64,000 nt of DNA from Candidatus Omnitrophota bacterium. GTDB lineage: Bacteria > Omnitrophota > Gorgyraeia > Gygaellales > Profunditerraquicolaceae. Where the stretch lies: assembly GCA_049275655.1 (NCBI GenBank), contig JBASUY010000057.1, positions 5,303-69,302 of the forward strand. The letters are read 5' to 3'. The position numbers and the translations under genes were made by a program. Below the pieces are notes generated by a model. That model was not told where the DNA came from, did no database searches, and worked only from the letters and a program-made list of their open reading frames with translations. Every line of letters starts with the position of its first letter. The first letter of the stretch is position 1. Positions 23,573 through 64,000 of the stretch are shown piece after piece.

Positions 23573-23791
23573 AACATAAAAAAATCCCCGCTTTGTGCCG
23601 TTAGACTGACTCAATTGAACCGATCTTTTTAGGTGGGTGCCTTCTCTATGGCGCAAAAGCGTCGTAGAATACAGGCTCCCTTGATATTTTTGTTGGTTCA
23701 AAAATTATCAATTTTCCAACGCGCACAGCAGGGATTTTAAAAGAACTCGTTTTCTAAAAAAAGTATAGCACATATTTTCGCAAAGTCAACC

Positions 23792-39926: not shown

Positions 39927-39930
39927 CTTA

Positions 39931-40283: not shown

Positions 40284-40732
40284 CTTCTTATCCCTCTTAA
40301 TTAAGATTGATTATGATGGTTGCTAATTATAGCATAAAAGCACACTCCGTCAATGGGTAATTTATATATTAATATAAAAGAGCCTTAATCTCCACCGAAT
40401 ATCCACAGCTCCGTCGATATTATCACCCTGCAGCCTCTCTTTGGCGCTTTTTAATCCTTATGATTATATTATAAAAGCGCCAGAGAATAAACCACTAAAG
40501 CTTATATCTAATTTGTATTGACGCAAGAGAAGAACGATGTATAATAACTGACGTTTAACTTTTTTGCTTGCAACTACTTTAATTTCTGTTATAATTATTG
40601 CACTCTACCTAAGGTATTGGAATGCCGACTATATTTGTCGCCGGTTTTATGATTTTAGGGGCTTGAGATCCTATAATAATAAGAATCATTTTTCCACAGA
40701 TTTATACAAGATGTGGATAAACTGTTAATAGA
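40284..40732. promoter_or_regulatory. Putative chromosomal replication origin (oriC) and dnaA promoter region
   Basis: It is a 449-nt non-coding rpmH-dnaA spacer. There is a perfect DnaA box TGTGGATAA at 40712..40720. Near-consensus boxes are aATATCCACA at 40398..40407 and TTTTCCACA at 40691..40699. An AT-rich run (atttatatattaatataaaag) lies at about 40360. Sigma70-like promoters are TTGACG-16-TATAAT (40518..40545) and TTGCAA-16-TATAAT (40568..40595). Gene-strand polarity flips here. Confidence 0.6.
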
Positions 40733-42073: not shown

Positions 42074-42207
42074 ATCCTAAGGTTATTCAATATATTTTTT
42101 ATTCTAACTTTTGATATCCATAGTGTTGGGTAGTTTTCAACAAAAAAGGCGGGGTATTACTATTACAACTATTTTTTATTTAATATATTAATAGTAAAGG
42201 AGATAAA

Positions 42208-43299
42208 ATGAAACTTAGTATTGATAAGGATGTCTTGTTGTCAGGAATACAGACCGTTCAAAATGTTATCATTGCTAAAACTAGCCTACCAATACTTTCC
42301 AACATTTTATTAGAAGCACAAAATGAGCAATTACGACTAACAGCCACAGATTTAGATATAGGTATAACCTGTGTAGTTCCTGTTGAGGTACGCGAAACAG
42401 GCGCAATTACTGTCCCGGCTAAAAGATTTAGCGATATTATTAAGGAGTTACCCGCAGGTAAAATTCAGTTAATGGCCAAAAAAAACAACCAGATGAATAT
42501 TGAAGCTCCTCCTTGTCAATTTAGAGTAATGGGGTTAGCCCGCGAAGAGTTTCCTAGGTTGCCTGAGTTTAAGGATAAGGAGGTAATTAATGTAGGGCAA
42601 AAAGATTTAAAAGAGATGTTGAGGGTTACTTCTTTTGCGGCATCTACGGACGAGCACCGTTATATTTTAAACGGGGTGCTTTTTAGGTTCCACAAAAATA
42701 ATCTTACTATGGTAGCTACGGATGGCAAAAGATTGGCGGTAGTGGAAAAAAAACTTAATACGCCTTCTAATATTGAAGCCAGTATTATTGTTCCACAAAA
42801 AGCAGTGCAAGAGCTAGGCCGCAACCTTAAAGATGAGGGGAGTGTCTCTTTGGTTTTAGGCCTCAATCAAGTGTTGTTTGAGTTGGGTTTCACATCTATT
42901 ATATCGCGCCTTATCGAGGGAGAATTTCCGGATTATAAACAAGTTATTCCTTCGCCTACAGATAACAAGCTACGTCTTAACAGGGGGGAGTTTTTGTTAG
43001 CGGTTAAAAGAGCTGCGCTTTTGTCTACTCCTGATTATCAGGCGGTAAAACTAGAGGTTTTTAAAAACAAATTAGTCCTCTCTAAATCTACTCCGGATGT
43101 CGGAGAGTCTCGGGAGGAGATTTCTATAGCCTATGTAGGGAAAGAATTGGTGGTAGGTTTTAATCCTTTGTATTTAGTAGATGTTTTAAAAAACTTAGAT
43201 GTTGAGTTTATAGATTTAGAGCTTACTGACACAGAAAAACCCGGGGTTATACGCAACGATGGTTATACTTATATAGTTTTACCTATGCGGTTAGGTTAG
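42208..43299 (+). CDS. dnaN: DNA polymerase III beta sliding clamp
   Basis: The 363 aa product has three beta-clamp domains and ends PMRL. Confidence 0.9.
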   Translation: MKLSIDKDVLLSGIQTVQNVIIAKTSLPILSNILLEAQNEQLRLTATDLDIGITCVVPVEVRETGAITVPAKRFSDIIKELPAGKIQLMAKKNNQMNIEAPPCQFRVMGLAREEFPRLPEFKDKEVINVGQKDLKEMLRVTSFAASTDEHRYILNGVLFRFHKNNLTMVATDGKRLAVVEKKLNTPSNIEASIIVPQKAVQELGRNLKDEGSVSLVLGLNQVLFELGFTSIISRLIEGEFPDYKQVIPSPTDNKLRLNRGEFLLAVKRAALLSTPDYQAVKLEVFKNKLVLSKSTPDVGESREEISIAYVGKELVVGFNPLYLVDVLKNLDVEFIDLELTDTEKPGVIRNDGYTYIVLPMRLG

Positions 43300-43302
43300 T
43301 TT

Positions 43303-46049
<2,747 letters not shown>

Positions 46050-46062
46050 CAAAGGAGGAGAT

Positions 46063-46872
46063 ATGGCGGATTATGCGAAAAAAGCGATTTATCCGGCTTT
46101 GATTTTTAAGGAAGCTTGGGGTATTGTTCTTAAAAGTTTCAAAAAATTGAGTGCCATTTTCCTAATTTTTTATATACCATTTTTGATCCTTGCTTTGTTA
46201 TCGTTGGCTATAGCAGGGGACCAGTCTAAAATTTTAACTCTAATCTCCATGATATTAAGCTTGTTGGTTTCGGTTCCGTTAATATTTGCTACTTGTAAAG
46301 TAGCGCAGGGTGAGGGGGTAAGTATTGTAGAGGGTATTTTATCGGGGATGAAAAAATACTTACTGCGCTATATAGCACTCAATTTATTAATGGCTCTATT
46401 TTTAATCGGTATAATCTTTGCCGGATTCTCGGTCGTAGTGGTTTTGTATTCTATGGTTGGCAGAGGGAGTATTTTATTGGCATTTACTACATTGATTATC
46501 CCGGCTATTATAGTAACTTCCATCTTCGTTTATTTTATGATCCGCTGGGCATTAGCAGGGGTAGTTTGTATAGCAGAGGGTTTAGGGCCTATTAAGTCAT
46601 TAAAGCGTAGCACCGTCCTTATAAAGAATTATGTTACGCCGGTTGTCGGAGAGTATACCTTAATTATGGTTACCTTATTGCTTGCATCTATCCCTTATAC
46701 TGCGTGGAATTATATTTTTAATAGGCAATATTATTCTGCAGAAGTAAGCATAGTTTCCGCTGCCGTCAATAATATTATTATTCATTCTATTGTAACACCA
46801 TTTATTATTGCAGTAATGGTTGTTATGTATAAAAAATTAAAAGAGGCGATAGAGACAAATGTATGCCCGTAA
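46063..46872 (+). CDS. Polytopic integral membrane protein of unknown function inserted between gyrB and gyrA
   Basis: The 269 aa product has about 6 predicted TM helices. A strong SD (aaaggagg) lies 6 nt upstream. Its 3' end overlaps the gyrA start by 14 nt. I did not recognise any family. Confidence 0.6.
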
Positions 46873-49288
46873 TGAAAAAGTAGTCCCTGTTTATATTGAA
46901 GAGGAGGTTAAAGACGCTTATTTAAATTATGCGATGAGCGTCATTGTCGGGCGTGCCCTGCCTGATATACGCGACGGTTTAAAGCCGGTGCATAGGAGGA
47001 TACTCTATGCTATGCAGGAGTTAAGCTTAGGGTATGCTAAGCCGTATAAGAAATGCGCGCGTATCGTTGGGGAGGTCTTGGGGAAATACCATCCGCATGG
47101 GGATGTGGCGGTTTACGATGCCTTAGTAAGGTTGGCGCAAGATTTTTCTTTACGCTATCCTTTGGTAGACGGACAAGGTAACTTTGGCTCTGTAGATGGA
47201 GATGCTGCTGCAGCCATGCGTTATACTGAGGCGCGCCTTGCTTCCATATCCGATGTTATCCTTGGGGATATAGATAAGGATACGGTAAACTTCGGGCCTA
47301 ATTTTGATGCTTCTTTAAAAGAGCCCTTGCTTTTGCCTGCGGCCCTGCCTAATTTGCTTGTAAATGGCTCAAGCGGTATCGCTGTAGGTATGGCCACAAA
47401 TATCCCGCCGCATAATTTAAATGAAGTAGCAGATGCGATTATTTATCTTTTAGATAATCCTTCAGCAGAGATTAAGGACTTGATGCGTTATATAAAAGGG
47501 CCGGATTTTCCTACAGGAGGGGTTATCTGCGGTAAGGGGGGGATTAAAGAGGCTTATACAACCGGGCGGGGCAAACTTACTGTGCGCGCTCGGGCGACTG
47601 TTGAGCATCAAAAAAACGGAAAAGATTTGATTATCATAACAGAGATTCCGTATCAAGTGCAAAAATCATCATTAATTGAGGCTATTGCCGGGCTTGTAGA
47701 CGAGAAAAAGATAGAAGGCATCTCTGATATACGCGATGAGTCTGACAAGGATGGCATGCGCATAGTAGTTGAGCTTAAAAGGGATACTGAGCCGCAGATT
47801 ATCCTCAACCAGCTCTTTAAACATACACAACTGGAGACCACCTTTGGTATTATTACCCTTGCACTTGTAGAGAATAGGCCTAAGGTTTTAAATCTGCGTC
47901 AAGTATTGGATTGCTATATAGAGCATCGCAAGGTTATTATCCGCCGCAGGACACAATTTGAGCTGGATAAGGCCTTGAAGAGGGCGCATATTTTAGAAGG
48001 ACTAAAGATAGCCCTTAAGTTTATTGACCGCATTATTAAGGTAATTAAATCCTCTAAGAGCGTAGATGTAGCACGGGTTAGTTTAATGAAAGAGTTCGGC
48101 CTTTCAGAGGTACAAGCGCAGGCAATACTGGAGATGCAGCTACAGCGCTTAACCGCTCTTGAGCAGGATAAGATTGAGGCTGAATATGCCGAATTACTAA
48201 AGAAGATAGAATTATGCAGGGCCATATTAGCCTCTGAGAAAAAAATAGAGGGCATTATTAAAAATGAGTTGAAAGGCCTTAAAGAGAGATACGGGGATGA
48301 GCGTAGGACTGATATAGTCGGCGAAGTGGAAGAGCTTGAGATAGAGGATTTGATAGCAGAAGAAGACGTTGTAGTTACTATTAGCCATAGCGGTTATATA
48401 AAGAGGCTTCCGGTAAGTTCTTACCGTAGACAAAAACGGGGGGGCAGAGGGGTAACCGGCGCAGAGGTGAAAGATGAGGATTTTATAGAGCACCTCTTTG
48501 TCGCCTCTACCAAGGATTACCTCTTGATTTTTACAGATAAGGGGCAAGTCCATTGGCTTAAGGTTTATGAGATTCCGCAGGCAAGCCGCACCTCTAAGGG
48601 TAAAGCTATTATTAATTTAGTGCAGATGGAGCAGGATTCTAAGATAAGCTCTACCGTTCCTGTTCAGGGGTTTTCTGCTGATCAATATTTAGTAATGGTT
48701 ACCAAATTAGGTTTAATTAAAAAGACTAAACTTGATGCTTATGGCAATCCGCGTAAAGGTGGGATTATAGGCATTACTCTAGACAAAGGAGATGAGTTAA
48801 TAAGCGTAGAGATGACGGATGGCAAGCAGGAGCTTTTAATAGGTACTCGCCAAGGAAAGGCTATACGTTTTTCTGAGGAAAAGGTTAGAGATATGGGGCG
48901 CGCTGCCCGGGGAGTAAGGGCAATATCTTTAGCAAAAAAAGATGAAGTAATAGATTTAGTTATCCCGCAAAAAGATGCGGCGATACTTACGGTTACCTCT
49001 TTGGGGTTTGCAAAGCGCACCACGGTAGATGAGTATAGGTTGACTTCTCGCGGAGGTAAGGGGATAATTAATATTAAGGTTACGGATAAAAACGGCGAAG
49101 CGGTAAACCTTAAGACCGTTAGCGATGAAGACGAATTGATGGTCATTACTCAAAATGGCATATTTTTACGTTGCGCGGTTAAAGACATTAGGGAGACCGG
49201 ACGCTCTGCCCAAGGAGTGAGATTAATCAAATTACAGGATAAAGACCGAGTCTCTTGTGTTGCTCCGGTTATAGCAGAAGAGGAATAG
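46859..49288 (+). CDS. gyrA: DNA gyrase subunit A
   Basis: It has the active-site region AMRYTEARL with the catalytic Tyr. It has a QRDR-like segment and C-terminal beta-pinwheel repeats. It is 809 aa. Confidence 0.95.
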
Positions 49289-49294
49289 GCTTTA

Positions 49295-49369
49295 GACCCT
49301 GTCGTCTAGCCTGGTCTAGGACAAGAGCTTTTCAAGCTCTCGACACGGGTTCAAATCCCGTCAGGGTCA
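49295..49369 (+). tRNA. tRNA-Glu (anticodon TTC)
   Basis: The sequence GACCCTGTCGTCTAGCCTGGTCTAGGACAAGAGCTTTTCAAGCTCTCGACACGGGTTCAAATCCCGTCAGGGTCA folds as a cloverleaf with the anticodon loop ttTTCaa. Confidence 0.8.
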
Positions 49370-49533
49370 CTTTATTTTTATGTGTGGAATAGTTGAGCAT
49401 GCAAGCGTAAGTCCAGCGCAGAATACTTTTTTCTGATAGGGTTAAAACGTTTAGGCACCGCGGATATAACAAAAAGAGGAAAATACGGGAATATAAACGG
49501 ATTAGCGAAACCCTTAAAGAGAGAGGTATTGAT

Positions 49534-51412: not shown

Positions 51413-51563
51413 TTGACAAAGGATTTGGGCGTGGTATACTTACCTTAAATTAGAAGGACCTTTAAGGCCTGCTCAGAGAGGCAGGCAAGGCGGAGAAAGT
51501 AATGGAGTTTACAACCTGTATATTAGATACCCTAGGCATAAAAGCCTAGGGTATTTTTTTATT
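51413..51563 (+). promoter_or_regulatory. pyr operon promoter + PyrR-binding loop + intrinsic terminator (transcription attenuator)
   Basis: The promoter is TTGACA-17-TATACT (51413..51441). The PyrR binding-loop motif is cctgCTCAGAGAGGCAGGCAAGG (51468..51490), against the consensus UCCAGAGAGGCU.GCAAGG. The terminator hairpin is accctaggc-ataaaa-gcctagggt (51529..51552) followed by T9. Confidence 0.65.
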
Positions 51564-51570
51564 TTGAAAG

Positions 51571-52107
51571 ATGAAAGAGAAGGCTAGGATATTAGATAAA
51601 GAGGCGATAAGCCGCGCTTTAATGCGCATTGCCCATGAGATAGTGGAGAAGAACAAGGGGACACAAAACCTATGCCTTATAGGGATAAGGAATCGCGGAG
51701 TTTTTTTAGCTAGGCGCCTGGCAGAGCAGATTAAAAAAATTGAAGGAGGCGATGTGTTATTCGGGGTTTTAGATATCACCCTCTACCGCGATGACCTTGC
51801 TTTGGCCTCCGGGCAGCCTATTGTGCGCAAGACAGAGATAGGTTTTGATATTAATAATAAACTACTCGTTCTTGTGGACGATGTCTTATATACCGGTAGG
51901 ACTATACGCGCGGCTTTGGACGCCTTAACTGATTTTGGTAGGCCTGAATCCATACAATTAGCGGTTTTAATTGACCGCGGACATCGGGAGTTGCCTATAA
52001 GGGCAGATTATGTAGGCAAGAATATTCCTACTGCTAAACATGAAACAATTCAGGTTCGGTTATTAGAAGTGGACAGGGCAGAAGAAGTTGTAATTTTAGA
52101 AAAATGA
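51571..52107 (+). CDS. pyrR: Bifunctional pyr operon regulator / uracil phosphoribosyltransferase PyrR
   Basis: It reads [22 protein letters not shown]...[17 protein letters not shown] and has the PRPP motif [17 protein letters not shown]. Confidence 0.9.
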
Positions 52108-53051
52108 GTTGGGTTAAAAAAGATTTATTAGGACTGGAATATCTAAGCAAAGAAGAGATCGAGTTAATTTTATCTACTGCTGAGTCTTTTAAAGAGGTCT
52201 CTACCCGAGAGATAAAAAAAGTTCCCGCTTTGCGCGGCAAGACCGTAGTTAATTTATTTTATGAGCCATCTACGCGTACCCGTGTATCATTTGAGGTAGC
52301 GGCAAAAAGGTTATCGGCAGACGTGATTAATATAGCTACCGAGACCTCAAGCGTTAAAAAAGGAGAGACCTTAATTGATACTGGGCGCAATATCGAGGCT
52401 CTTAAAGCGGATATTATTGTTGTGCGCCACAATGCATCCGGGGCAGCGGCTATACTTGCCAGGCATCTTAATATAAGCGTAGTCAATGCTGGGGATGGCT
52501 GGCATGAGCACCCAACCCAAGCCTTATTGGATATTTTTACCCTGAAGGAAAAGTTAGGAAGGGTACAAGGGTTAAATGTAACCATAGTAGGAGATATTGC
52601 CCACTCTCGTGTAGCCCGTTCAAATGCGTGGGGTTTAGTTAAGTTGGGGGCTAAGGTTACTTTTTGTGCCCCACAGATACTTATCCCGGCAGGCGTTGAA
52701 GGGTTTGGCGTTCAGGTAACCGACAATATAGAAGAGGCTTTAGAAAATGCCGATGCGGTTAATGTCCTGCGGATGCAGTTTGAGAGGGATGGTGGATCAG
52801 CCTTCCCTGAGCAGTTAGAATATTTTAAGAACTTTGGGATTACCGAAGAGAGGATCAAGAGGGCAAAAAAGGGAATAGTTGTTATGCACCCCGGGCCAAT
52901 TAACCGCGGGATAGAGATGTCAAGCGAAGTTGCTGATGGAGAAAACTCTGTGATTTTAGAACAGGTTATTAATGGGATAGCTGTGCGCATGGCGGTTTTG
53001 TATTTAGTCTCGCAAGCTAACGAAAGAATAAAAAATGGCGGTACTGATTAG
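52104..53051 (+). CDS. pyrB: Aspartate carbamoyltransferase catalytic subunit
   Basis: It has the STRTR motif ([11 protein letters not shown]), HPTQ, and HPGP with LP. Confidence 0.9.
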
Positions 53052-54312
53052 AGGCGGTAGGGTTGTTGATCCGTATAATAATACAGATGGTGTTTTTGAT
53101 CTTTTGATTGAGGGGAGTAAGATTATTAAGGTTGCAGCTGGTATTAAGGATGCGGCAGTTGAAGTAATTGAGGCAAGCGGAAAGATAGTAATTCCCGGTT
53201 TAGTAGATATGCACGTGCATTTAAGAGAACCGGGTAGAGAGGATAAAGAGACCCTCCTCTCAGGCACAATAGCTGCGCTTGCCGGAGGCGTAACCAGTAT
53301 TTTAGCCATGCCTAATACTACTCCTGCTATGGATTCTGTTGATAGTATTAAAATTTTAAAAGAGAGGATAGATGCGAATGCTAAGGCAAATGTCTTTATC
53401 TGTGGAGCAATCACAAAAGAGAGGGCAGGTAAAGACCTTGTAGATATAGAAGCCCTGAAAAAAGAAGGGGTTATTGCAATTTCTGATGACGGAGCATCCG
53501 TTGATTCGGATAGCCTAATGCTTGCGGCCTTTAAGGAAGCAGTTCAAGAGGGGTTACTTGTTATTTGCCACTCTGAAGATAAGTCTGCTTCCTGCGCTGG
53601 AGTAGTTAATTTGGGGTTTACCTCTACCCGATTAGGCCTAAGGGGAATATCTAAAGAATCCGAGTATAAAAGGGTCTTACGGGATATTGAATTAGCTAAA
53701 GAAGCAAAGGCAAAAGTTCATATAGCACATTTAAGTTGCCTTGAGTCAGTTGATGCGGTCTTGAAGGCAAAACAAAGAGGCGCAAGAGTTACGGTAGAGA
53801 CCTGTCCGCATTATTTTAGCTTTACAGAAGAAGCGGTATTAACCTATGATACTAATTTTAAAATGAACCCGCCATTAAGAAGCGCGGCAGATTCTCAGGC
53901 ACTTAAGGATGCTATATCTTCCGGGATAATTGACGTGATTGCCTCAGACCATGCGCCTCATACTGAAAATGAAAAAGACATAGAGTTTGAGCGCGCAGAA
54001 TTCGGAGTGATTGGTTTAGAGACTGCACTCTTAGCCGCCATAACAGAGTTAGTGGATAAAGGTGTCTTAGGATGGGCTGATTTAGTTAAAAGAATGTCAT
54101 TAAATCCTGCGCGCATCTTGGGTATAAATAAGGGGAGCCTTTCTGTGGGAGCTGATGCGGATATTGCTATAATTGACCCTGTTAAAGAGCAAAGGATTAC
54201 TAAAGAGCGTTTTTTATCTAAATCTAAGAATTCTCCGTTTATAGGCAGGACGCTTAAAGGTTGTGTAGAATACACGCTTTGCTTAGGGAAGGTGTATAAA
54301 TGGAATTCATAG
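53035..54312 (+). CDS. pyrC: Dihydroorotase
   Basis: The amidohydrolase metal ligands are DMHVHLREPG and SDHAPH. It is 425 aa. Confidence 0.85.
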   Translation: MAVLIRGGRVVDPYNNTDGVFDLLIEGSKIIKVAAGIKDAAVEVIEASGKIVIPGLVDMHVHLREPGREDKETLLSGTIAALAGGVTSILAMPNTTPAMDSVDSIKILKERIDANAKANVFICGAITKERAGKDLVDIEALKKEGVIAISDDGASVDSDSLMLAAFKEAVQEGLLVICHSEDKSASCAGVVNLGFTSTRLGLRGISKESEYKRVLRDIELAKEAKAKVHIAHLSCLESVDAVLKAKQRGARVTVETCPHYFSFTEEAVLTYDTNFKMNPPLRSAADSQALKDAISSGIIDVIASDHAPHTENEKDIEFERAEFGVIGLETALLAAITELVDKGVLGWADLVKRMSLNPARILGINKGSLSVGADADIAIIDPVKEQRITKERFLSKSKNSPFIGRTLKGCVEYTLCLGKVYKWNS

Positions 54313-55532
54313 CGGATTTTCATATTCACTCAAAGTATTCTAGGGCTACGAGCCGTAATATGGATATTAAGAATTTAGCGGAATGGGCAAAACTGAAAGG
54401 TATATCCCTTATGGGAACAGGAGATTTTACCCACCATTTATGGCTTGAGGAGCTTAAGGCGAACTTAGAGGATTGCGGTAATGGGCTTTATGCGTACAAC
54501 GGAATAAGTTTTATATTAACTGCCGAAGTAAGCAGTATTTATTCAAAGAAAGGTAGGTCTTATAGGATACACAACTTAATATTTGCTCCTTCATTTAAGG
54601 TTGTAGACCAGATAAATGATACCTTGGGCAGAATCGGCAATTTATCCTCAGACGGCAGGCCGATTTTAGGGCTTGACGCCGCAGAACTTGCCCGCATTGT
54701 CTTTGATATAGACGAGAATTGTATGCTCATCCCCGGGCATATCTGGACTCCGTGGTTTTCTTTGTTTGGCTCTATGTCCGGCTTTGACAGAATAGAAGAC
54801 TGTTTTGAGGATCAGACATCAAAAATCTTTGCCCTTGAAACCGGGCTCTCTTCGGACCCGGCGATGAATTGGAGGCTAAGCGCCTTAGATAAATTTACCC
54901 TGATTTCAAATAGCGATTCCCATTCTCCGCAGAAAATAGGAAGGGAGGCGAATGTTTTTAATTGCGCGCTTGATTATAATGAAATCCGCCAAGCTTTAAA
55001 AACAAAGGATAAGGATAAGTTTCTTTATACGATAGAGTTTTTCCCGGAAGAAGGAAAGTACCATTTTGACGGGCATAGGCTTTGTGGGGTAAGATGGTCT
55101 CCGCAGGAGACTAAAAAACATAGCGGTAAATGCCCTAAATGCGGGAAGAAGGTTACCGTAGGTGTTTTAAATAGAGTAGAGTCTTTAGCAGATAGGCCAG
55201 AAGGGTTTAAGCCTGCCGATGCAATACCATTTATAAACCTAATTCCATTAGACGAGATAATTGCCGATGCTAAAGGCGTTGGCAAGGCGAGCGTTGCTGT
55301 GGAGCGTGATTACCGTAGCATGATTGCTAAATTTGGCACGGAATTTGAGATATTAAAACGGGTGCCTAAAGAAGAGTTGTTGAAAGGGTTAGCTTCAAAG
55401 ATAGCTGAGGGCATTTTAAGGGTGCGGGAAAGGAGGGTTAACATAAAGGCCGGATTTGACGGAGAATATGGCAAGATTTCTATCTTTGAAGATAAAGAGA
55501 CAGAGAAGGAGGAGCAGCTCAGGCTGTTTTAA
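54300..55532 (+). CDS. PHP-domain nuclease with C-terminal Cys-rich zinc ribbon, endonuclease Q-like
   Basis: It has an N-terminal PHP motif (ADFHIHSKYSRATS) and a further PHP His/Asp cluster (NSDSHSP). It has a C-terminal HRLCG...CPKCGKK zinc finger. The 410 aa length and architecture match EndoQ/TIGR00375 as I recall it. Its start overlaps the pyrC stop. Confidence 0.45.
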   Translation: MEFIADFHIHSKYSRATSRNMDIKNLAEWAKLKGISLMGTGDFTHHLWLEELKANLEDCGNGLYAYNGISFILTAEVSSIYSKKGRSYRIHNLIFAPSFKVVDQINDTLGRIGNLSSDGRPILGLDAAELARIVFDIDENCMLIPGHIWTPWFSLFGSMSGFDRIEDCFEDQTSKIFALETGLSSDPAMNWRLSALDKFTLISNSDSHSPQKIGREANVFNCALDYNEIRQALKTKDKDKFLYTIEFFPEEGKYHFDGHRLCGVRWSPQETKKHSGKCPKCGKKVTVGVLNRVESLADRPEGFKPADAIPFINLIPLDEIIADAKGVGKASVAVERDYRSMIAKFGTEFEILKRVPKEELLKGLASKIAEGILRVRERRVNIKAGFDGEYGKISIFEDKETEKEEQLRLF

Positions 55533-55562
55533 AAGAGATTTACACAGGGACAGCTTATTAGC

Positions 55563-55634
55563 GCGCCTGTAGCCTAATGGATAGGGCATTAGCCTCCGGA
55601 GCTAAGTGTGACAGTTCGATTCTGTCCAGGCGCA
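55563..55634 (+). tRNA. tRNA-Arg (anticodon CCG)
   Basis: The sequence GCGCCTGTAGCCTAATGGATAGGGCATTAGCCTCCGGAGCTAAGTGTGACAGTTCGATTCTGTCCAGGCGCA folds as a cloverleaf with the anticodon loop ctCCGga. Confidence 0.8.
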
Positions 55635-55686
55635 ATCAGTATTTATTCTGACTTGTCTATATTTAGTTAATAGATAGAGAGGCATA

Positions 55687-56157
55687 ATGAAAAAAATTAT
55701 AGGGGTTATTGGTGGGCATATATGTAATAATAAAGTAGGGGATTTAGCCTATAAATTAGGCATTAAACTTGCTAAAGTGGGGGATTATCTTGTATGTGGA
55801 GGGCTTAGTGGAGTAATGAACCATGTTTGTAAAGGTTTTAAGCAAGGAGGTGGGGTTACAATAGGCATTATTCCGGGCTATAATAAATCTACTGCAAATA
55901 AGTATGTAGATATTGTTATTCCTACAGGTATGGGGTTCGCAAGGAATGTTTTAGTGGTTAAGAGCGCGGATATTGTTGTTGCTTTCCCGGGGAGGACAGG
56001 GACTTTATCAGAGATAGCGTATTGTTTACAATTTAATATTCCGGTGATAGGGTTTAAGTATTGGAATATACCTGGAATTATCCGAGTGGATAAGATTGAT
56101 AAAGTAGTTGAAATAGTTAAGGATACCCTATCTAAAGTAGTTTTGGAGGATGAGTAA
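55687..56157 (+). CDS. LOG/TIGR00725-family Rossmann-fold protein (putative nucleotide 5'-monophosphate nucleosidase-like)
   Basis: It reads IIGVIGG...LVCGGLSGVMN...FPGRTGTLSE. This matches the LOG-family PGGxGTxxE motif and glycine-rich loop. It is 156 aa. Confidence 0.55.
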   Translation: MKKIIGVIGGHICNNKVGDLAYKLGIKLAKVGDYLVCGGLSGVMNHVCKGFKQGGGVTIGIIPGYNKSTANKYVDIVIPTGMGFARNVLVVKSADIVVAFPGRTGTLSEIAYCLQFNIPVIGFKYWNIPGIIRVDKIDKVVEIVKDTLSKVVLEDE

Positions 56158-57233
56158 TGCAGGCTATTTTGGTTCTTGAGGACGGGAAGAGTTTTATAGG
56201 CGAATCTAGCGGGATAAAGACAGAGAGGGCCGGAGAGGTTATTGTAAATACCGGAGTTGTCGGGTATCAGGAGATGATAACTGACCCTGCAAACTTAGGG
56301 AAGATATTAGTTTTAACTTATCCTATTATAGGTAATTATGGTTGTGCGCCTAAGTTTAGCGAATCTGATAAAGTTAGAGTTGCCGGGCTTGTTGTAAAAG
56401 AGGAGTCCCGGGTATATTCAAACTGGCAGGCTAAAGAGAGCCTAAAGAGCTTTGCGCAGAAAAATGAATTATTTGTATTGCATTCTGTTGATACACGCAT
56501 GCTTGCGATACACCTAAGACAAAGAGGGCCCTTATACGGGATAATCTCTACGGAATCTTTTGATGTTAAGAGTCTTGTTGAGAATGCCCGCGCATTCCGT
56601 CAAAGCCCCCCTTTAGACGTGCTTAAAGAGGTCTCTGTCAGTAAGCCAAAAAAGTTAGATAAGTCAAAAGGCAAGAGGTTAGCAATATTAGATTTGGGGG
56701 TAACGAGGAGCATTATAAGGCAGATTGAGCGTTTAGGGTTTTCAATAACCCTCTTGCCGTATAATACTGCTACTTCAGAGGTAATAAAGTTAAGGCCCAA
56801 GGGCTTAGTTATCGCTGGAGGGCCTGAGAATATTATTGCGTTGGAGAGGGTTGCTGAAAGTATCAAACCTTTATTAGGGAGGATGCCTATTTTAGGAATA
56901 TCTTCCGGGAGTTTAGTCTTGGCATTAGGCTTGGAAGCTAAGCTTCATAGGTTGCAAATAGGGCATAGGGGGATGAATTATCCGGTGCAAAATCCCTCTT
57001 CTCCTAAAGGGGAGATTACTATCCAAAACCATACTTATGCTATAGACCCTATTTCTTTGCTTAAGGTGCGGGGGGTAAAGATTACTGGGTATAACCTAAA
57101 CGACAGGACAGTGGAAAGATTTGAAAGTAAGCGGTTAAAAATAATAGCAGTACAATATATTCCTTATTCGCCGGGATGTAATGAAGTTAATACGGATATC
57201 CTAAGGTTTAAGGGTATCTTGAAAGGAAGTTAG
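56157..57233 (+). CDS. carA: Carbamoyl-phosphate synthase small subunit homologue with degenerate glutaminase active site
   Basis: It has a CPSase_sm_chain N-domain (VIVNTGVVGYQEMITDPANLGKILVLTYPIIGNYG). In the GATase domain, the region aligning to E. coli GICLGHQ reads GISSGSL, so Cys269 becomes Ser. The region aligning to FQGHPE reads VQYIPY, so His353 becomes Ile and Glu355 becomes Tyr. Confidence 0.8.
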   Translation: MQAILVLEDGKSFIGESSGIKTERAGEVIVNTGVVGYQEMITDPANLGKILVLTYPIIGNYGCAPKFSESDKVRVAGLVVKEESRVYSNWQAKESLKSFAQKNELFVLHSVDTRMLAIHLRQRGPLYGIISTESFDVKSLVENARAFRQSPPLDVLKEVSVSKPKKLDKSKGKRLAILDLGVTRSIIRQIERLGFSITLLPYNTATSEVIKLRPKGLVIAGGPENIIALERVAESIKPLLGRMPILGISSGSLVLALGLEAKLHRLQIGHRGMNYPVQNPSSPKGEITIQNHTYAIDPISLLKVRGVKITGYNLNDRTVERFESKRLKIIAVQYIPYSPGCNEVNTDILRFKGILKGS

Positions 57234-57236
57234 CCT

Positions 57237-60200
57237 ATGCCTCGCAGAAGAGACATTAAAAAGATTTTAATAATTGGTTCCGGGCCTATTGTCATTGGTC
57301 AAGCTTGTGAGTTTGATTACTCAGGCTCTCAGGCGTGTAAGGCCTTAAAAGAGGAGGGTTATTTTACTATACTTATAAATTCCAACCCAGCGACAATAAT
57401 GACTGATCCGGGCATGGCGGATGTTACTTATATTGAACCTCTGTCTGTTGAGATGTTAACTAAGGTTATTGCTAAAGAACGTCCGGATGCTATTTTACCG
57501 ACATTAGGAGGGCAGACAGGGCTTAACCTTGCCTTCTTCCTTATGAAAAAAGGGGTTTTGAAGAAATACGGGGTTGAATCTATCGGGGCTTCGGTAAGTT
57601 CCATATCTTGCGCTGAGGATAGGGGAATTTTTAAAAGAGCGATGCAGGGGATAGGGGTTGGTATTCCTAAAAGTAGCATAGTTACTTCATTGGCCGAAGG
57701 GATGAGAGTGGGCCGTACCATAGGGTTTCCTCTTATATTAAGGCCTGCCTATACATTAGGGGGTAGCGGAGGGTCTATTGCTTATAATCATGAAGAGCTA
57801 AAAAGATTATTATCAAAGAGCTTAGAATCAAGCCCGGTCCATCAGGTTTTGATTGAAGAGTCTGTTTTAGGATGGAAGGAAATTGAGTTTGAGGTTTTAC
57901 GCGATTGTGCCGATAATGTAATTATCGTTACCTCTATGGAGAACTTTGATCCTATGGGAGTGCATACGGGGGATAGCATTGTTGTTGCCCCTGCCCAGAC
58001 GCTAACCGCAGAAGAATACAATAACTTTGTTAATCTTTCTAAGAGGATTATTCGCCGTATCGGGATAAACGGCGGGGGTGCGAATATACAGTTTGGCCAA
58101 AATCCTAAGGATGGCAGGATTGTAGTTATTGAGGTTAATCCGAGGCTCTCGCGTTCTTCTGCCTTAGCTTCTAAGGCGACCGGATTTCCTATTGCGCGTG
58201 TTGCAACGAAACTTGCTGTTGGTTATACGTTGCCTGAAGTGATAAACCAGGTTACAGGCAAGACCTCTTCATTTTTTGAACCTACGCTAGATTATTGCGT
58301 CTTTAAGATGTGCCGTTTTACTTTTGAAAAATTCCCCTACGCCCAGCGCCTCTTGAATACCTCAATGAAGGCTGTGGGAGAGGCGATGTCTATTGGGAGG
58401 AATTTTAAAGAGGCATTTCAAAAAGGCATTCGCTCTATGGAGATATCCCGTTTTGGCTTTGGTTCAGACGGAAAAGATAAAATTACTGACGCGGAACTAA
58501 AGAAAGCAGGGAATGGGTTAATTAAGCTTATGCGTGATAAACTTAGGATCCCTAATGATGAAAGGGTATTTTATATCCGCTACGCGCTTAAAGCCGGAAT
58601 CTCCCCTCAAGAGATAAGTTCCCTCTCTAATATTGACCGTTGGTTTATTGATAACCTGCAGGAGCTAGTTAAGATAGAAGAGGAGTTGGCGGGGTATAAA
58701 AATCATAAACCCGAAGAAGATATCAAGGTTCCTTTAGGGCTTCTTAAAAAAGCTAAAGAAAACGGCTTTTCTGACCACCAACTGGCATTTATATTAAATT
58801 CTAAAGAAGATAAGGTGCGTGATTTACGCAAGAAGTATAATATAAAAGCAGTCTATAAACTGGTGGATACATGTGCCGGAGGGGTTGCGGCTAAACAGCC
58901 ATATTTTTATTCTACTTATGAGGTTTTTGACGAGTCAAGGCCAAGTAAGAATAAAAAGGTAGTAATTTTAGGCGGAGGGCCTAACCGTATCGGACAGGGG
59001 ATTGAGTTTGATTATTGTTGTTGTCATGCAGCGTATGCTTTAAAAGATGAAGGTGTAGATAGTATTATGGTTAATTGTAACCCTGAGACGGTTTCAACGG
59101 ACTATGATACTTCTGACCGTCTTTATTTTGAGCCGCTTACATTTGAAGATATAATGAATATTATAGATTTAGAGAAACCAATGGGGGTTATCCTGCAGTT
59201 TGGCGGCCAGACACCTTTAAATCTTGCCCTCCCGCTACGCGAGGCAGGGGTTAACATTCTTGGGACCTCCGCAGAGAGCATTGATATTGCAGAAGACCGG
59301 AAGAGGTTTAAAGATATGCTGTATAAACTCGCCCTTTTGCAGCCTGAGAACGGGACCGCCTTTAATTTTGATGAGGCGAAGAAAGTAGCCAAAGAGATAG
59401 GTTATCCGGTTTTGGTTAGGCCGTCATATGTTTTAGGAGGCAGGGCAATGGAGATCGCCTATGACGAGGAGGCATTGGAAAAGTTTATTAAAGATGCGGC
59501 AGAGGTATCCGGGGAGCATCCGGTTTTAATTGATAAATTTTTAGAGGATGCTATTGAGGTGGATGTAGATTTAATCGGAGACGCAGAGACTTTTGTTATC
59601 GGAGGGATTATGGAGCATATTGAGTATGCCGGGGTTCACTCCGGCGATGCAGCGATGTCCCTTCCGACATATACGCTTTCTGAAGCAAGCTTGAATAAGA
59701 TCAGGCATGCTACATATGAGATGGCTAAAGAGTTAAAGGTAGTAGGCCTGATGAATATACAGTATGCGGTAAAAGATGATAAGGTTTATGTATTAGAGGT
59801 TAACCCAAGGGCTTCCCGGACGATTCCTTTTGTCTCAAAGGCCATAGGAGTTCCTTTGGCGAAGTTAGCGACAAAGGTATTATTAGGAAGGAAGCTAAAG
59901 GATTTAGGGTTTACCAAAGAGGTTATACCTAAACACATATCAATTAAAGAATCGGTCTTTCCTTTTAATCGTTTTCCGGGGGTGGATGTTATTTTAGGCC
60001 CGGAGATGAAATCAACCGGAGAGGTTATGGGGATTGATAAGGATTTTGGCCGCGCGTATATTAAAAGCCAGCTTGCCGCAGGCCAAAAACTTCCTAAGAA
60101 AGGCAATGTTTTTATCTCTGTGCGCGATAAAGACAAGAGGCAGATAATCTTTATCGCTAAAAAGATAGCGGAGTTAGGGTTTAATGTTTATGCCAGTTTA

Positions 60201-60524
60201 GGTACTGCTAATGTCTTACGCAAAAGCGGGATTAAGGTAAAGGTTTTGCCGAAAATAGCCGAAGGTAGGCCGAATATATTGGATTTGATGAAAGATGGAA
60301 AGATACAGCTTCTGATAAATACCCCTTCAGGGCGCATACCTCGTCAGGATGAGGTGAAGATTCGTTCACATGTTATACTATACAATATTCCCTATACTAC
60401 CAGCATCTCTGCTGCGCAGGCGACAGTTAATGGCATAGAGGTTTTATTAAAGAATGATTTAGAGGTTAAGCCCTTACAGGCATACCATAAGAAAAAAAGG
60501 CAAAGAGGAGGTTGTTGTGCCTGA
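57237..60524 (+). CDS. carB: Carbamoyl-phosphate synthase large subunit
   Basis: The 1095 aa product has duplicated ATP-grasp halves, an oligomerisation domain and a C-terminal MGS-like domain. Confidence 0.95.
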
Positions 60525-61320
60525 GTTGCCGGAAGTCGAGACTATAAAGAGAGAGTTAGAAAAGGTCGTAATAGGCAAAAAAATTTCCAAGGTATCTGTT
60601 TATAACCCTAGGGTCATACGTAGCCCTTCTGTCTCTAAGTTTAAAGCAATCTTATCCGGAACCCGTATAAACCGAATATTGCGTCGGGGCAAGGCCCTGA
60701 TATTTGAGCTCTCCAATGCTAAGGCCTTGGTTATTCACTTAAAGATGACCGGGCAGTTAATCTACCCGGGTTCAAAAAGCAAAGAGCAAAAAGTCTCTTT
60801 TGGTTTTTCAGGTGGGGATAGCCTTGTCTTTAATGATCAGAGGCTCTTTGCGGAGATTAGGCTTATGGATGATTGGAGGGAGTTAAAGTTTATACAGGGC
60901 TTAGGGCCTGAACCAAAGGATTTAACGCTCTTAAAATTTCAAGATATGTTAGCGGGTAAAAAAACGAAAATCAAGCCTTTGCTTATGGACCAGAAGTTTA
61001 TCTCTGGTATAGGCAATCTATATGCAGCAGAGATTTTGTTTGCTGCTAAGATTAATCCTGAGAAGAGGGCAAATAGCCTATCCAATAAAGAGAAAGAGAG
61101 GCTTTATAATGCTATGCGTAGCGTATTGGATGCGGCTATTAAGCATGGCGGTTCGTCTATTGATGACTATCTTCGCCTTTCAGGCGCAAAGGGAGAATAT
61201 AAAAAATACCACAAGGTCTATGGTAGAGAAGGCAAGCCTTGTTTTATATGTAAAAGTTTAATCAAAAGAAGCGTGTTAGGTGGAAGGGGTACTTATTTTT
61301 GCCCTAAGTGTCAAAGGTAA
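60517..61320 (+). CDS. mutM: Formamidopyrimidine-DNA glycosylase (Fpg/MutM)
   Basis: The N-terminus is [10 protein letters not shown], with catalytic Pro2 and Glu3. It has an H2TH domain and a C-terminal zinc finger ([25 protein letters not shown]). Its start overlaps the carB stop by 8 nt. Confidence 0.9.
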
Positions 61321-62099
61321 GGACAGTGAAGCAGATAAAGCCGAAGATTATCTCTAATAAGCTCTTAACAAAGAGTTATTGGCGTTGTATTATGCGCGCT
61401 CCAGCTATTGCTAAAATTGCTAAGCCGGGGCAGTTTATAAATGTTAAGACAACCAGCGGGTTAGTTCCTCTTTTGCGTCGCCCCTTTAGCATACACAATA
61501 TTGACGGAGCGGACTTAGAGGTTATTTATGATGTTGTCGGAGAAGGGACTAAGGCATTTTCTCAAAAAAGAAGCGGTGAGTATTTAGATATTATCGGGCC
61601 GTTAGGTAATGGATTTTCTCTGCCCGTATCTTCTAAGTACTTATTGATTGTTGTCGGGGGGGGAGTGGGTATTGCGCCGTTGTTTCTCTTAGCAAAAAAA
61701 GCGAAAACAAAAAATAAGATTGTTTTGATTGGTTCAAAGAACCAAGGAGAGCTTTTGTGTGAAAAAGAGTTTAAGGATATCGGATGTGATGTTAAAATAT
61801 CTACGGATGACGGGTCTTATGGATTTAAGGGGCAGGTAACATCTTTATTAAGAGAGGTGCTTGATATTAAGAGAAGAGAAAAAGAAAGAATACTTATATA
61901 TGCTTGCGGCCCTACACCGATGCTTAAAGAGGCCTTTAAGATTGCAACTACGAATGGCTTACCTGCGCAGTTTTCATTAGAGGAGCATATGGGTTGTGGC
62001 ATAGGAGCCTGTTTAGGGTGTGTGGTAAAGACAAAAAATGGCCTAAAGAGGGTTTGTAAAGAAGGCCCGGTATTTAATGCTTCGGATTTAGTATGGTGA
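61308..62099 (+). CDS. pyrK: Dihydroorotate dehydrogenase electron-transfer subunit (FAD/[2Fe-2S])
   Basis: It has an FAD-binding module (RAPAIAKIAKPGQFINV, RRPFSI) and a C-terminal 2Fe-2S cluster (CGIGACLGC). The start is a GTG at 61308 overlapping mutM, or possibly the GTG at 61326. Confidence 0.85.
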   Translation: MSKVRTVKQIKPKIISNKLLTKSYWRCIMRAPAIAKIAKPGQFINVKTTSGLVPLLRRPFSIHNIDGADLEVIYDVVGEGTKAFSQKRSGEYLDIIGPLGNGFSLPVSSKYLLIVVGGGVGIAPLFLLAKKAKTKNKIVLIGSKNQGELLCEKEFKDIGCDVKISTDDGSYGFKGQVTSLLREVLDIKRREKERILIYACGPTPMLKEAFKIATTNGLPAQFSLEEHMGCGIGACLGCVVKTKNGLKRVCKEGPVFNASDLVW

Positions 62100-62103
62100 A
62101 GAT

Positions 62104-63027
62104 ATGAGTGTTAATCTTGCAGTTAATATAGGTAAACTTAAATTAAAGAATCCAGTGATGGTTGCCTCCGGAACCTTTGGCTATGCTAAAGAGTTTAAAG
62201 ATTTTATTAATCTAAGAAGATTAGGGGCCATTGCAACAAAGACTATAACCTTAAAACCCCGTCAAGGTAATCCCCCTGTCCGTACCTGTGAAACTCCCTG
62301 TGGGATGCTTAATTCCATCGGTTTAGAAAATCCCGGGATAAATTCCTTTTTAAAGGATAATTTGCCTTTTTTGAAAAAGTTGCAGGTGCCCATTGTTATG
62401 AGTATTGCTGCGGAGGATAATCCTTCTGAATTTGTAGAGCTTACGAAGAGATTAAACAAATTAAGTTGTGTTGATGCCTTAGAGCTTAATATATCCTGCC
62501 CTAATATCGCAGGTAAGAGCGATTTAATTGCACAAGATAAGGATGCTACGTATGCAGTTGTCCGTTCTGTGCGTAAGGCCACAACTAAAACTTTGATTAC
62601 TAAATTATCCCCCAATGTTACTTCTATTAGCGAGATTGCCGGCGCTGCGCAGGAAGCCGGCAGTGACGCAGTCTCTTTAATTAATACGCTCTCGGGTATG
62701 AGTATCGATATTTTTACCATGAGGCCAAAACTTGCGCAGGCTTTTGGAGGCTTAAGCGGCCCGGCAATAAGGCCGGTAGCTATTAAGATGGTCTGGGATG
62801 TCTATAATAAGATTAAAATTCCAATTATCGGAATGGGTGGTATAATAGATGCGCAAAGTGCATTAGAATTTTTTATCGCCGGGGCTACTGCTATAAGCGT
62901 AGGAACAGCTAATTTTATTAATCCTAAGGTAAGCGTTGAGATAATAGACGGGTTAAAAAGATACCTTAAAGATAAGAAGATACAAAATATTCAAAACCTT
63001 ACCGGAAGCTTAATCTATGAAACCTGA
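62104..63027 (+). CDS. pyrD: Dihydroorotate dehydrogenase catalytic subunit (class 1B)
   Basis: It reads LKNPVMVASGTFGYAKEF with the catalytic Cys region NISCPN. It is 307 aa. Confidence 0.9.
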   Translation: MSVNLAVNIGKLKLKNPVMVASGTFGYAKEFKDFINLRRLGAIATKTITLKPRQGNPPVRTCETPCGMLNSIGLENPGINSFLKDNLPFLKKLQVPIVMSIAAEDNPSEFVELTKRLNKLSCVDALELNISCPNIAGKSDLIAQDKDATYAVVRSVRKATTKTLITKLSPNVTSISEIAGAAQEAGSDAVSLINTLSGMSIDIFTMRPKLAQAFGGLSGPAIRPVAIKMVWDVYNKIKIPIIGMGGIIDAQSALEFFIAGATAISVGTANFINPKVSVEIIDGLKRYLKDKKIQNIQNLTGSLIYET

Positions 63028-63700
63028 GATAGTTTTGGCACTTGATGTGGATAATTTTCTTCAAGCGCGCCAGCTTGTGGATAAACTCTATCCTACTATT
63101 AAAACATTTAAGGTAGGAAGCCAGTTATTTACCTCATGCGGGCATAAGATTGTAGAGTTTATCAATAAAAAAGGCGCTAAGGTATTTTTAGACTTAAAAT
63201 TTTTTGATATACCCAATACCGTTGCCAAGGCAGTTCGCGCAGCAACCCGCCTTAAGGTTAAGATGATGACCATGCATATCCTTGGCGATGAGGAGATGCT
63301 TAAGGCAGCGGTCTTTGCCGCGAAGGATGAGGCAAGGAGACTTCGCATAAAAAGGCCGCTTTTAATCGGGGTTACTGTATTGACTAGCAAGGAAGCGAAG
63401 ATAAATGATGTTTTAATTTTAGCAAAGATGGGGATAGAGTCTGGTTTGGACGGAGTGGTCTGCTCTGCTAAGGAGGCAGGGGAAGTGCGTAAGAATATAA
63501 AAGGGGAGTTTGTTATCGTAACTCCGGGGCTAAGGGCAAGGGGTAGTTTTAAGAATGACCAAAAGAGGACTGCGACTATCCTTGAGGCAATCTCTGCAGG
63601 GAGTAATTTTTTAGTAGTCGGCAGGCCGCTCTTAGAAGCAACTAACCCTAAGGCAACCGCAAAAGCAATGTTAGGAGAGATAAATGCCGGAAGAGATTAA
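63017..63700 (+). CDS. pyrF: Orotidine 5'-phosphate decarboxylase
   Basis: It reads IVLALDVDNF with the DxKxxDIP motif (LDLKFFDIPNTV). Confidence 0.9.
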   Translation: MKPEIVLALDVDNFLQARQLVDKLYPTIKTFKVGSQLFTSCGHKIVEFINKKGAKVFLDLKFFDIPNTVAKAVRAATRLKVKMMTMHILGDEEMLKAAVFAAKDEARRLRIKRPLLIGVTVLTSKEAKINDVLILAKMGIESGLDGVVCSAKEAGEVRKNIKGEFVIVTPGLRARGSFKNDQKRTATILEAISAGSNFLVVGRPLLEATNPKATAKAMLGEINAGRD

Positions 63701-64000
63701 ATCACTAATAGAAAAGATTCAAAAAGAAGGGATTCAAAAGGCATCCGATGAAGCGCTTAAGATAGTAGAAGAGGCCAAAAGAGAAGCCAAAAAAATATTA
63801 CAGGATGCGCATGCAAAGGCAGAAGTTTTGCTTGCTCAGGCTAAAGAAGAGATATTAAAAAAGAAGGAGTCTTCCGATATTCTACTCAAGCAATCAGGGA
63901 GGGATTTTATCATCTCTTTGCGCAATCAGATTAATATAATCCTTAAAAATATTATTGCGCAGAAGGTCTCCGAGGCTCTATCTATTGAAGAGGTCTCTAA
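63683..64000 (+). CDS. Partial ORF continuing past the window end: coiled-coil protein resembling V/A-type ATPase subunit E or an F-type b-like stalk protein
   Basis: The ATG at 63683 overlaps the pyrF stop. The product is MPEEIKSLIEKIQKEGIQKASDEALKIVEEAKREAKKILQDAHAKAEVLLAQAKEEILKKKES..., a charged alpha-helical stalk-like sequence. The window truncates it. Confidence 0.3.

Follow-up and report, generated by a model that had tools for sequence, protein, structure and literature searches.

Genes for endonuclease Q and MutM homologues within a conserved pyrimidine operon with a PyrR-type leader in Omnitrophota

In pyrimidine biosynthesis (pyr) operons under PyrR regulation, expression is on when uridine monophosphate (UMP) or UTP is low. 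The B. subtilis operon has the gene order pyrR-pyrP-pyrB-pyrC-pyrAA-pyrAB-pyrK-pyrD-pyrF-pyrE and contains three attenuators. Here we describe a pyr array of this general kind in a 64,000-nucleotide (nt) stretch of a Candidatus Omnitrophota bacterium genome (contig JBASUY010000057.1; the whole stretch is hereafter called the window), in which two genes for the repair of damaged DNA bases, endoQ (endonuclease Q) and mutM (formamidopyrimidine-DNA glycosylase, also known as fpg), are embedded. The array lies on the + strand at 51.4–63.7 kb of the window, and all its genes point in one direction in the order pyrR-pyrB-pyrC-endoQ-tRNA-Arg(CCG)-SLOG-carA-carB-mutM-pyrK-pyrD-pyrF (Table 1). Gene order and identities were derived from the open reading frame (ORF) listing, ARAGORN, Pfam, NCBIfam and Rfam, and they bear out the operon map proposed in an earlier note on this DNA. 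The arrangement is not a product of chance, as it recurs collinearly in 67 species-representative genomes.

Similar to the Bacillus-type operon, the window array begins with pyrR, has a PyrR-binding leader RNA with an intrinsic terminator (RF00515), and retains the order pyrB-pyrC-carA-carB-pyrK-pyrD-pyrF with overlapping stops and starts. Unlike the B. subtilis operon with its three attenuators, it has a single detected attenuator and lacks both pyrP and pyrE; a V-type ATPase cluster, into which the array continues, follows pyrF in place of the latter gene. It also includes four elements foreign to the Bacillus-type operon, namely endoQ, tRNA-Arg(CCG), the SLOG gene and mutM. A precedent for one of these comes from E. 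coli, where mutM is co-transcribed with unrelated housekeeping genes in the yicR-rpmB-rpmG-mutM operon, according to a passage in PMC4725251 that cites Gifford & Wallace 1999. Compared with the operon as described in that passage, where an Fpg/MutM gene is likewise embedded among unrelated housekeeping genes, the window mutM is internal, overlapping carB, and not terminal; its host operon is devoted to attenuated nucleotide biosynthesis, a second repair gene (endoQ) is present, and the arrangement is known here from sequence alone. The EndoQ literature presents the enzyme as archaeal, and its bacterial homologues have been described as rare or few and unexplained (PMC4357722, PMC5961232). In kind, the layout varies two themes already known, that of the PyrR-attenuated pyr operon and that of glycosylase genes placed in housekeeping operons, and what appears to be new is a clade-wide syntenic bacterial EndoQ. 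Searches of the full-text literature that covered EndoQ or MutM within pyr operons, the context of repair genes in Omnitrophota, TIGR00375/MJ0043 and SLOG cluster 4 returned nothing relevant, in line with the view of the earlier note that the arrangement had not been described.

The 410-aa product of the gene that follows pyrC was suspected in the earlier note to be an EndoQ-like PHP nuclease, and this assignment holds. The protein shares its full-length architecture with PfuEndoQ (PDB 5zb8, 7k30) and with the EndoQ proteins of B. pumilus and B. subtilis. In a phmmer search of PDB, its residues 5–405 aligned with residues 5–392 of PfuEndoQ (5zb8_A/7k30, E=6e-63), with 145 of 384 aligned positions identical (38%). 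The NCBIfam profile for endonuclease Q, TIGR00375, was matched over positions 2–374 of 374 with 204.2 bits; this score is under the curated cutoff of 326.6, and by the NCBIfam cutoff rule the protein is a divergent subfamily. The local copy of Pfam-A gave no match to it.

In PfuEndoQ, two catalytic zinc ions are coordinated by His8, His10, Glu76, His84, His139 and Asp193, and the pocket that recognises lesions consists of His139, Thr142, Glu167, Leu168, Gly169, Leu170, Asn191 and Asp193 (PMC5961232). The catalytic zinc site is complete in the window protein (H8, H10, E76, H91, H147 and D206, plus H208, which corresponds to Pfu His195), and these residues are kept in 80–81 of 81 EndoQ orthologues. 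Seven of the eight pocket residues are identical to those of PfuEndoQ, the exception being a threonine in place of L168, a position that provides main-chain atoms only. Pocket residues T150, E180, G182 and L183 are kept in all 81 orthologues and N204 in 79 of them. In the Zn-binding domain, Pfu C249, C252, C268 and C271 align to H259, C262, C278 and C281, so that the first ligand is a cysteine in PfuEndoQ and a histidine in the window protein. This His-Cys3 set, plausible as a zinc site, is kept in 80 of 81 orthologues and represents the sole systematic difference from the four-cysteine set of PfuEndoQ. By these features the 410-aa protein is a divergent EndoQ that appears competent; enzymes of this type cut DNA 5' of dU, dI, dX or apurinic/apyrimidinic (AP) sites. 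A histidinol-phosphatase-type or other non-nuclease PHP protein, the alternative raised in the earlier note, was ruled out by the full-length EndoQ matches in PDB and NCBIfam and by the intact catalytic residues.

MutM, the product of the second repair gene, scores 283.7 bits with TIGR00577 (cutoff 203.3), carries all three Pfam domains of the family (PF01149 Fapy_DNA_glyco, PF06831 H2TH and PF06827 zf-FPG) and matches Fpg structures in PDB at E=1.6e-50. Its residues P2 and E3, K59 as the conserved lysine that the family has at about position 57, and the CxxC...CxxC zinc finger (C242, C245, C262 and C265) are kept in 43–44 of 44 orthologues, and on its sequence it is a canonical Fpg, as had been proposed. 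The label given earlier to the 156-aa gene between the tRNA and carA, a LOG-family protein, is a loose one. The protein passes TIGR00725 and PF18306 and belongs to SLOG cluster 4, and its nearest solved structures are the Moco-carrier-like 6y01 and 2iz5. It falls below the models for LOG proper (cytokinin riboside 5'-monophosphate phosphoribohydrolase), scoring 48.4 bits against 96.35 for TIGR00730 and 32.2 against 300 for NF058542.

To place the array in its lineage, species-representative genomes were scanned, giving 80 loci with an EndoQ homologue (numbered with the prefix L where a single locus has to be named), onto which the window proteins were mapped by tblastn and tRNAs by ARAGORN. 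Identical proteins are present on metagenome contigs, with identical contigs in the runs SRR28062859, ERR7015307 and SRR12762278, and the closest genomes are Candidatus Omnitrophota metagenome-assembled genomes (MAGs), in which EndoQ is at best 93% and mostly 70–82% identical to the window protein. The endoQ gene occurs together with pyr genes in 67 of the 80 loci, and every one of the 67 is collinear with the window. Wherever enough upstream sequence is available, pyrC directly precedes endoQ (60/60 loci). The tRNA-Arg(CCG) gene follows endoQ in 63 loci, and in 38 of 41 mutM is located between endoQ and pyrK. The rsmI-like gene of the upstream flank, which served as an internal control, adjoins pyrR in just 22 of 47 loci; therefore, the interior of the operon is more stable than its flank. 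The genomes have diverged substantially, identity to the window being about 48–90% for PyrC (mostly 56–68%) and 40–82% for PyrK (mostly 44–59%). The GC content of the operon is even (0.41–0.43); given this uniformity and a layout common to about 65 species, a recent horizontal insertion of the repair genes is unlikely.

Outside this clade, the EndoQ homologues of Patescibacteria, WOR-3, proteobacterial and archaeal MAGs (48–62% identity) have no pyr genes within 10 kb, and the window gene differs in this respect from the EndoQ of all other phyla surveyed as well as, in its Omnitrophota host, from the characterised enzymes. Two divergent loci (L071 and L072, about 60% identity) have the order pyrR-pyrB-pyrC-(Mut7-C)-endoQ-carA-carB-pyrK without the tRNA and without mutM, and on this pattern endoQ probably entered the operon earlier than mutM. 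With EndoQ present in at least 65 Omnitrophota species, the enzyme emerges as a standard, vertically retained gene of a large uncultured clade, which adds to the question of its distribution in bacteria.

Operon junctions overlap or are at most 5 nt apart, except around the tRNA. The endoQ gene begins with ATG at 54300, so that it shares 13 nt with pyrC (stop TAG 54310–54312) and the two overlap as had been claimed; GGGAAGGTG lies upstream of this start. The mutM start, GTG at 60517, overlaps carB by 8 nt (GTGCCTGA), also as claimed, and has AGAGGAGG upstream; it is fixed by the product, which begins (M)PELPEVET. The third reported overlap, between the mutM stop (TAA 61318–61320) and pyrK, exists only if pyrK starts at GTG 61308. 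A 5-nt spacer is more likely at this junction, because GTG 61326 (257 aa) is taken as the start in gene calls for identical public contigs and the family profiles of pyrK align from residue 8 or later. Such tight packing is general in this genome. Coding density is about 93%, and among the 54 pairs of same-strand neighbours in the window, 28 either overlap or have 15 nt or less between them. The stop of pyrF is itself overlapped by 17 nt by a V-type ATPase E/G-like gene, so the co-directional array runs on beyond the pyr genes. In Pfam that gene matches HrpE/V-ATPase E and V-ATPase_G_2 weakly (E about 2e-3, under the cutoffs); on L001, an identical contig, it is followed by a DUF2764-like gene and the V-ATPase A subunit (19385–21233).

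The upstream end of the array contains a promoter, a PyrR-binding leader and a terminator, all visibly conserved, as is the PyrR binding loop, in a leader alignment of relatives. In the promoter, CCTTGACA and the -10 element are kept in relatives. The leader ends in an intrinsic terminator, a 13-bp hairpin followed by a T-run (51525–51556). A hairpin-plus-T-run scan found a strong terminator at this place in about 48 of 59 operon-bearing loci, whereas elsewhere in these loci the matches are weak, scattered and mostly within coding sequence. The PyrR attenuator, which the earlier note had predicted and for which both the PyrR protein and the leader were found, is the only conserved terminator or regulatory signal among the 59 loci scanned. 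A permissive Rfam scan detected no second PyrR site in 51–64 kb at E<=1; a strict search for further sites in the relatives with a CAGAGAGG-type motif was too narrow to be useful.

The promoter scan, which covered sigma-70-type sites only, found no sigma-70-like motif at a consistent distance upstream of the tRNA in the 63 relatives. In the last ~50 codons of endoQ, the entropy of third codon positions is not reduced (1.30–1.42 against a gene mean of 1.23), and hence the 3' end of this gene shows no trace of a conserved promoter within it. In many species the tRNA begins 4–12 nt past the endoQ stop and must therefore be transcribed through endoQ. Most simply, one transcript coming from upstream would cover endoQ as well as the tRNA, and the array would form one unit under the PyrR leader from which the tRNA would be cut out later. 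Co-transcription of the whole array is likely on these grounds.

While its core is stable, the array has accepted and lost other genes. ORFs in the operon gaps were clustered, and most of the cluster representatives were scanned against Pfam. Between pyrC and endoQ, about 21 loci (e.g., L030 9517–9972; also L071, L072 and L062) have a gene of ~150 aa for a nuclease-domain protein of the Mut7-C type (PIN-like plus Zn-ribbon). The most divergent pyr-linked loci have it too, and its absence from the window probably reflects the loss of an ancestral gene in the window lineage; the protein may work together with EndoQ. In relatives, a flavodoxin-like gene and an ORF of 95 aa are found between endoQ and the tRNA, and UPF0047 occurs between carB and mutM in 11 loci. 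Between mutM and pyrK, 33 relatives have a PEMT/ICMT-like membrane methyltransferase gene of ~235 aa (e.g., L013 14188–14898), which has been deleted in the window lineage, bringing mutM directly against pyrK. Between pyrK and pyrD there is either a TauE fragment (12 loci) or an ORF of 381–388 aa (6 loci) that was read by eye, not by profile scan, as a glycosyltransferase. A dCTP-deaminase/dUTPase-like gene (PF22769) is inserted in L057 (12524–13057) and L064 (11901–12419), in the latter directly upstream of mutM.

The mutM position itself is maintained under such changes. In L009, L064 and L067, mutM is retained in the operon although carAB is absent from it. In L051, where mutM is missing, the corresponding region (14200–17412) reads carB-UPF0047-HNH endonuclease-Ogg-73-aa ORF-EndoIII-PEMT-pyrK, with Ogg identified by PF22175 (2e-58) and EndoIII by HhH-GPD and FeS domains. 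Here MutM has been replaced in situ by a non-homologous 8-oxoguanine (8-oxoG) glycosylase. A mobile cassette is suggested by the HNH gene, and none of the other loci among the 80 contains an Ogg/EndoIII cassette. The retention of endoQ and mutM, the persistence of mutM without carAB and the replacement in L051 together suggest that selection keeps base-excision functions in this transcription context.

Two further variations concern the neighbours of the repair genes. In 17 of 19 loci examined, carA is missing from the operon and carB is reduced to its C-terminal half (L012, L013, L014, L019, L023, L024, L025, L033, L034, L035, L038, L039, L043, L045, L053, L061 and L084); the half-size gene encodes about 515–575 aa (e.g., L013 11773–13356) that align to residues ~520/570–1090 of the window CarB with 74–83% identity. 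Full-length carA and a 1095-aa carB are found in the window, L007, L017 and L026. The carbamoyl-phosphate synthase of the half-size loci could be of half size or split. Hairpins that are GC-rich and have no T-run are located between the endoQ stop and tRNA-Arg in L015, L025, L034, L038 (e.g., GCGCCTGTGGTTCGACAAGCTCACCACACGGCGC), L041, L048, L065, L068 and others. In sequence they are similar to the acceptor stem and T-arm of the adjoining tRNA-Arg, and they may be tRNA-like minihelices, partial duplications or signals for processing.

We consider the array to be a lineage-specific, conserved variant of the PyrR-attenuated pyr operon in which the repair genes hitchhike as housekeeping mutation-avoidance enzymes, their retention in the operon being under selection and modulation by PyrR a side effect (probability roughly 0.55). 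A single promoter at about 51.41 kb would drive a long polycistronic transcript, the level of which would be set by the PyrR/UMP-sensitive terminator in the leader. The repair genes would be translated through coupling or re-initiation at the overlapping junctions. Excision of the tRNA by RNase P and 3' processing would split the mRNA into a pyrR-pyrB-pyrC-endoQ part and a SLOG-carAB-mutM-pyrKDF part. In a very compact genome, the repair enzymes would in this way be co-expressed with an operon for nucleotide supply that is origin-proximal, steadily expressed and linked to growth and replication, and we do not think that a dedicated sensor links pyrimidine pools to repair. The analysis establishes what the genes are, that their active sites are intact, how the junctions are built, the attenuator and the conserved layout; that the genes are co-transcribed, that PyrR controls the distal ones, that the tRNA is processed and why selection acts are inferred. 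Hitchhiking is favoured because tight junctions are generic here (28/54 pairs, and the 17-nt overlap at pyrF/V-ATPase), and because the locus lies in the origin region, unrelated passengers share the operon and the E. coli mutM operon provides a precedent.

Several observations weigh against this interpretation. Shared descent, and not selection, may account for part of the conservation inside a single clade, and the in-place exchange of MutM for Ogg and EndoIII speaks for something beyond pure hitchhiking. The Rfam score of the PyrR leader is barely over its threshold in the window, and none of seven relatives reaches the gathering score, although the motif is still visible in the alignment. 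The remaining points concern the unity of the transcript and are taken up below with the proposal that there are several promoters.

The earlier note had suggested that placing both genes under the PyrR attenuator would tie the repair of damaged bases to nucleotide-pool status. In its fullest form this would mean that EndoQ (uracil and hypoxanthine), MutM or Ogg (8-oxoG) and EndoIII (oxidised pyrimidines) are deliberately co-regulated with pyrimidine synthesis via PyrR, repair going up at low UMP/UTP or high nucleotide demand. We regard this as unlikely. Both endoQ and mutM are retained in about 65 species while passengers and the upstream flank turn over, and mutM is kept where the operon lacks carAB; yet EndoQ homologues outside the clade do not lie beside pyr genes, and tight junctions are generic in this genome. 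The mutM slot of L051 was filled with Ogg and EndoIII, but this is one genome, and the accompanying HNH endonuclease suggests a mobile cassette. Other genes for nucleic-acid or deoxynucleotide functions have joined the operon (Mut7-C and the dCTP-deaminase/dUTPase-like gene), but so have unrelated passengers (the PEMT-like, TauE, flavodoxin and UPF0047 genes, the glycosyltransferase-like ORF and the tRNA). That the PyrR attenuator is the only conserved regulatory signal would also fit, but PyrR acts in a direction that has, to our reasoning, no obvious connection to 8-oxoG repair, and we see no mechanistic reason for low UMP to demand more of it. With generic junctions, unrelated passengers and a precedent for a glycosylase gene in an operon, a purposeful tie between repair and pyrimidine pools is not established. 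A related proposal, which we hold to be doubtful to a similar degree, is that excision of uracil and hypoxanthine by EndoQ and of 8-oxoG by MutM (or by Ogg together with EndoIII) has been selected for expression from the PyrR-attenuated transcript, with the tRNA serving as an RNase P site through which the two halves of the operon would become independent in stability. If true, such selected co-expression would parallel, in bacteria, the way in which nucleotide supply and base-excision repair are regulated together with replication.

Expression of a tRNA normally has to be robust and independent of metabolite levels. It is odd to find a CGG-decoding tRNA, possibly the only one, behind a UMP-responsive attenuator, and therefore an unrecognised internal promoter could exist. 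The array may accordingly be two or more transcription units, with a promoter near or in the 3' end of endoQ or before the tRNA driving tRNA-SLOG-carAB-mutM-pyrKDF without any influence of PyrR; in that case the attenuator would act on endoQ alone, if at all, and the gene order would be inherited synteny. A weak promoter-like match (9/12) does exist at 55438–55467, inside endoQ, and the scan was limited to sigma-70-type sites; still, neither a motif at a consistent distance from the tRNA nor constraint on synonymous sites at the 3' end of endoQ was seen in the relatives. Many relatives have insertions of 0.3–1.1 kb between endoQ and the tRNA, but in many other species the short spacing described above leaves the two genes almost adjacent. 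In L051 a strong terminator (-22 kcal/mol) directly follows the tRNA, and therefore at least one species splits the unit there, but no conserved terminator parts the two halves. We judge several transcription units to be improbable, and a single transcript from the PyrR leader remains our preferred reading. Very improbable is the idea that the embedded proteins act on nucleotides or RNA, in pool sanitation or salvage, and not on chromosomal DNA damage, operon membership then being metabolic: SLOG/LOG-type proteins bind or hydrolyse nucleotides and the operon of two relatives contains a DCD/dUTPase-like gene, but EndoQ retains the lesion-recognition (7/8 of the pocket) and cleavage residues of PfuEndoQ as well as its Zn-binding and C-terminal domains, and MutM retains the catalytic Pro2, Glu3 and Lys, the H2TH domain and the zinc-finger DNA-binding modules.

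If co-transcription holds, the array would be a clear and phylogenetically conserved case of base-repair genes wired into a metabolite-sensing nucleotide operon, and a concrete system in which to ask whether bacteria match the repair of miscoding bases to nucleotide supply or to replication. Its practical value is modest: the annotation of these genomes improves, as EndoQ misses the NCBIfam cutoff, and the operon model can be tested. It is not a new kind of molecular system.

Table 1. Features of the pyr array and its leader region in the window (positions are those of the window)
Feature	Position	Strand	Basis
Sigma-70-type promoter, TTGACA-16-TATACT with TG extension	51413..51440	+	Best match in 49–64 kb, 11/12 positions
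PyrR-binding leader RNA	51455..51562	+	Rfam RF00515, 56.7 bits (gathering score 54)
pyrR, attenuation regulator / uracil phosphoribosyltransferase	51571..52107	+	NCBIfam NF003549 PyrR equivalog, 256 bits (cutoff 138)
pyrB, aspartate carbamoyltransferase	52104..53051	+	NF002032, 408.6 bits
pyrC, dihydroorotase	53035..54312	+	TIGR00857, 394.6 bits (cutoff 279)
endoQ, endonuclease Q homologue, 410 aa; PHP, Zn-binding and C-terminal domains	54300..55532	+	PfuEndoQ homology
tRNA-Arg(CCG)	55563..55634	+	ARAGORN and Rfam, 67.3 bits
SLOG cluster-4 / TIGR00725 protein, 156 aa	55687..56157	+	PF18306, 6e-40; TIGR00725, 118.9 bits (cutoff 106.9)
carA, carbamoyl-phosphate synthase small subunit	56157..57233	+	TIGR01368, 311 bits
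carB, carbamoyl-phosphate synthase large subunit, 1095 aa	57237..60524	+	Precomputed Pfam CPSase_L domains; orthologues 59–95% identity
mutM/fpg, formamidopyrimidine-DNA glycosylase/AP lyase, 267 aa, GTG start	60517..61320	+	TIGR00577
pyrK, dihydroorotate dehydrogenase B electron-transfer subunit; alternative start GTG 61308	61326..62099	+	NF000798, 196.8 bits, below curated cutoff 219; Pfam DHODB_Fe-S_bind, 6.3e-17
pyrD, dihydroorotate dehydrogenase catalytic subunit	62104..63027	+	NF005574, 394 bits
pyrF, orotidine monophosphate decarboxylase	63017..63700	+	NF001273, 228.5 bits
V-type ATPase E/G-like gene start, cut by window end	63684..64000	+	Identical contig L001 19385–19981

The window spans the chromosomal replication origin (oriC) region, the GC skew changing sign at about 40–42 kb. 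Within 38400–49370, yidC and parA are on the - strand, and dnaA (40733–42073), dnaN, gyrB, gyrA and tRNA-Glu are on the + strand. A conserved 269-aa protein with no Pfam match is encoded at 46063–46872 (+) and is listed between gyrB and gyrA. A SIS-domain gene and the rsmI-like methylase gene follow tRNA-Glu on the + strand, and the pyr operon comes next. It is located about 11 kb from dnaA on the leading strand, and all genes of the region are co-oriented with replication.

Elsewhere in the window, a 6S RNA was identified at 23581–23737 (-) between pheT and an MgsA-type AAA+ gene (RF00013, 74.9 bits). The mechanical ORF at 22262–23701 overlaps this RNA, and hence the true start of mgsA is probably further downstream. 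In an EF-G-like ORF of 1020 aa at 19196–22258 (-), the GTPase domain begins at residue 331 and occupies 276 residues against a profile of 188 positions, which suggests an N-terminal extension of ~330 aa and an insertion in the G domain.

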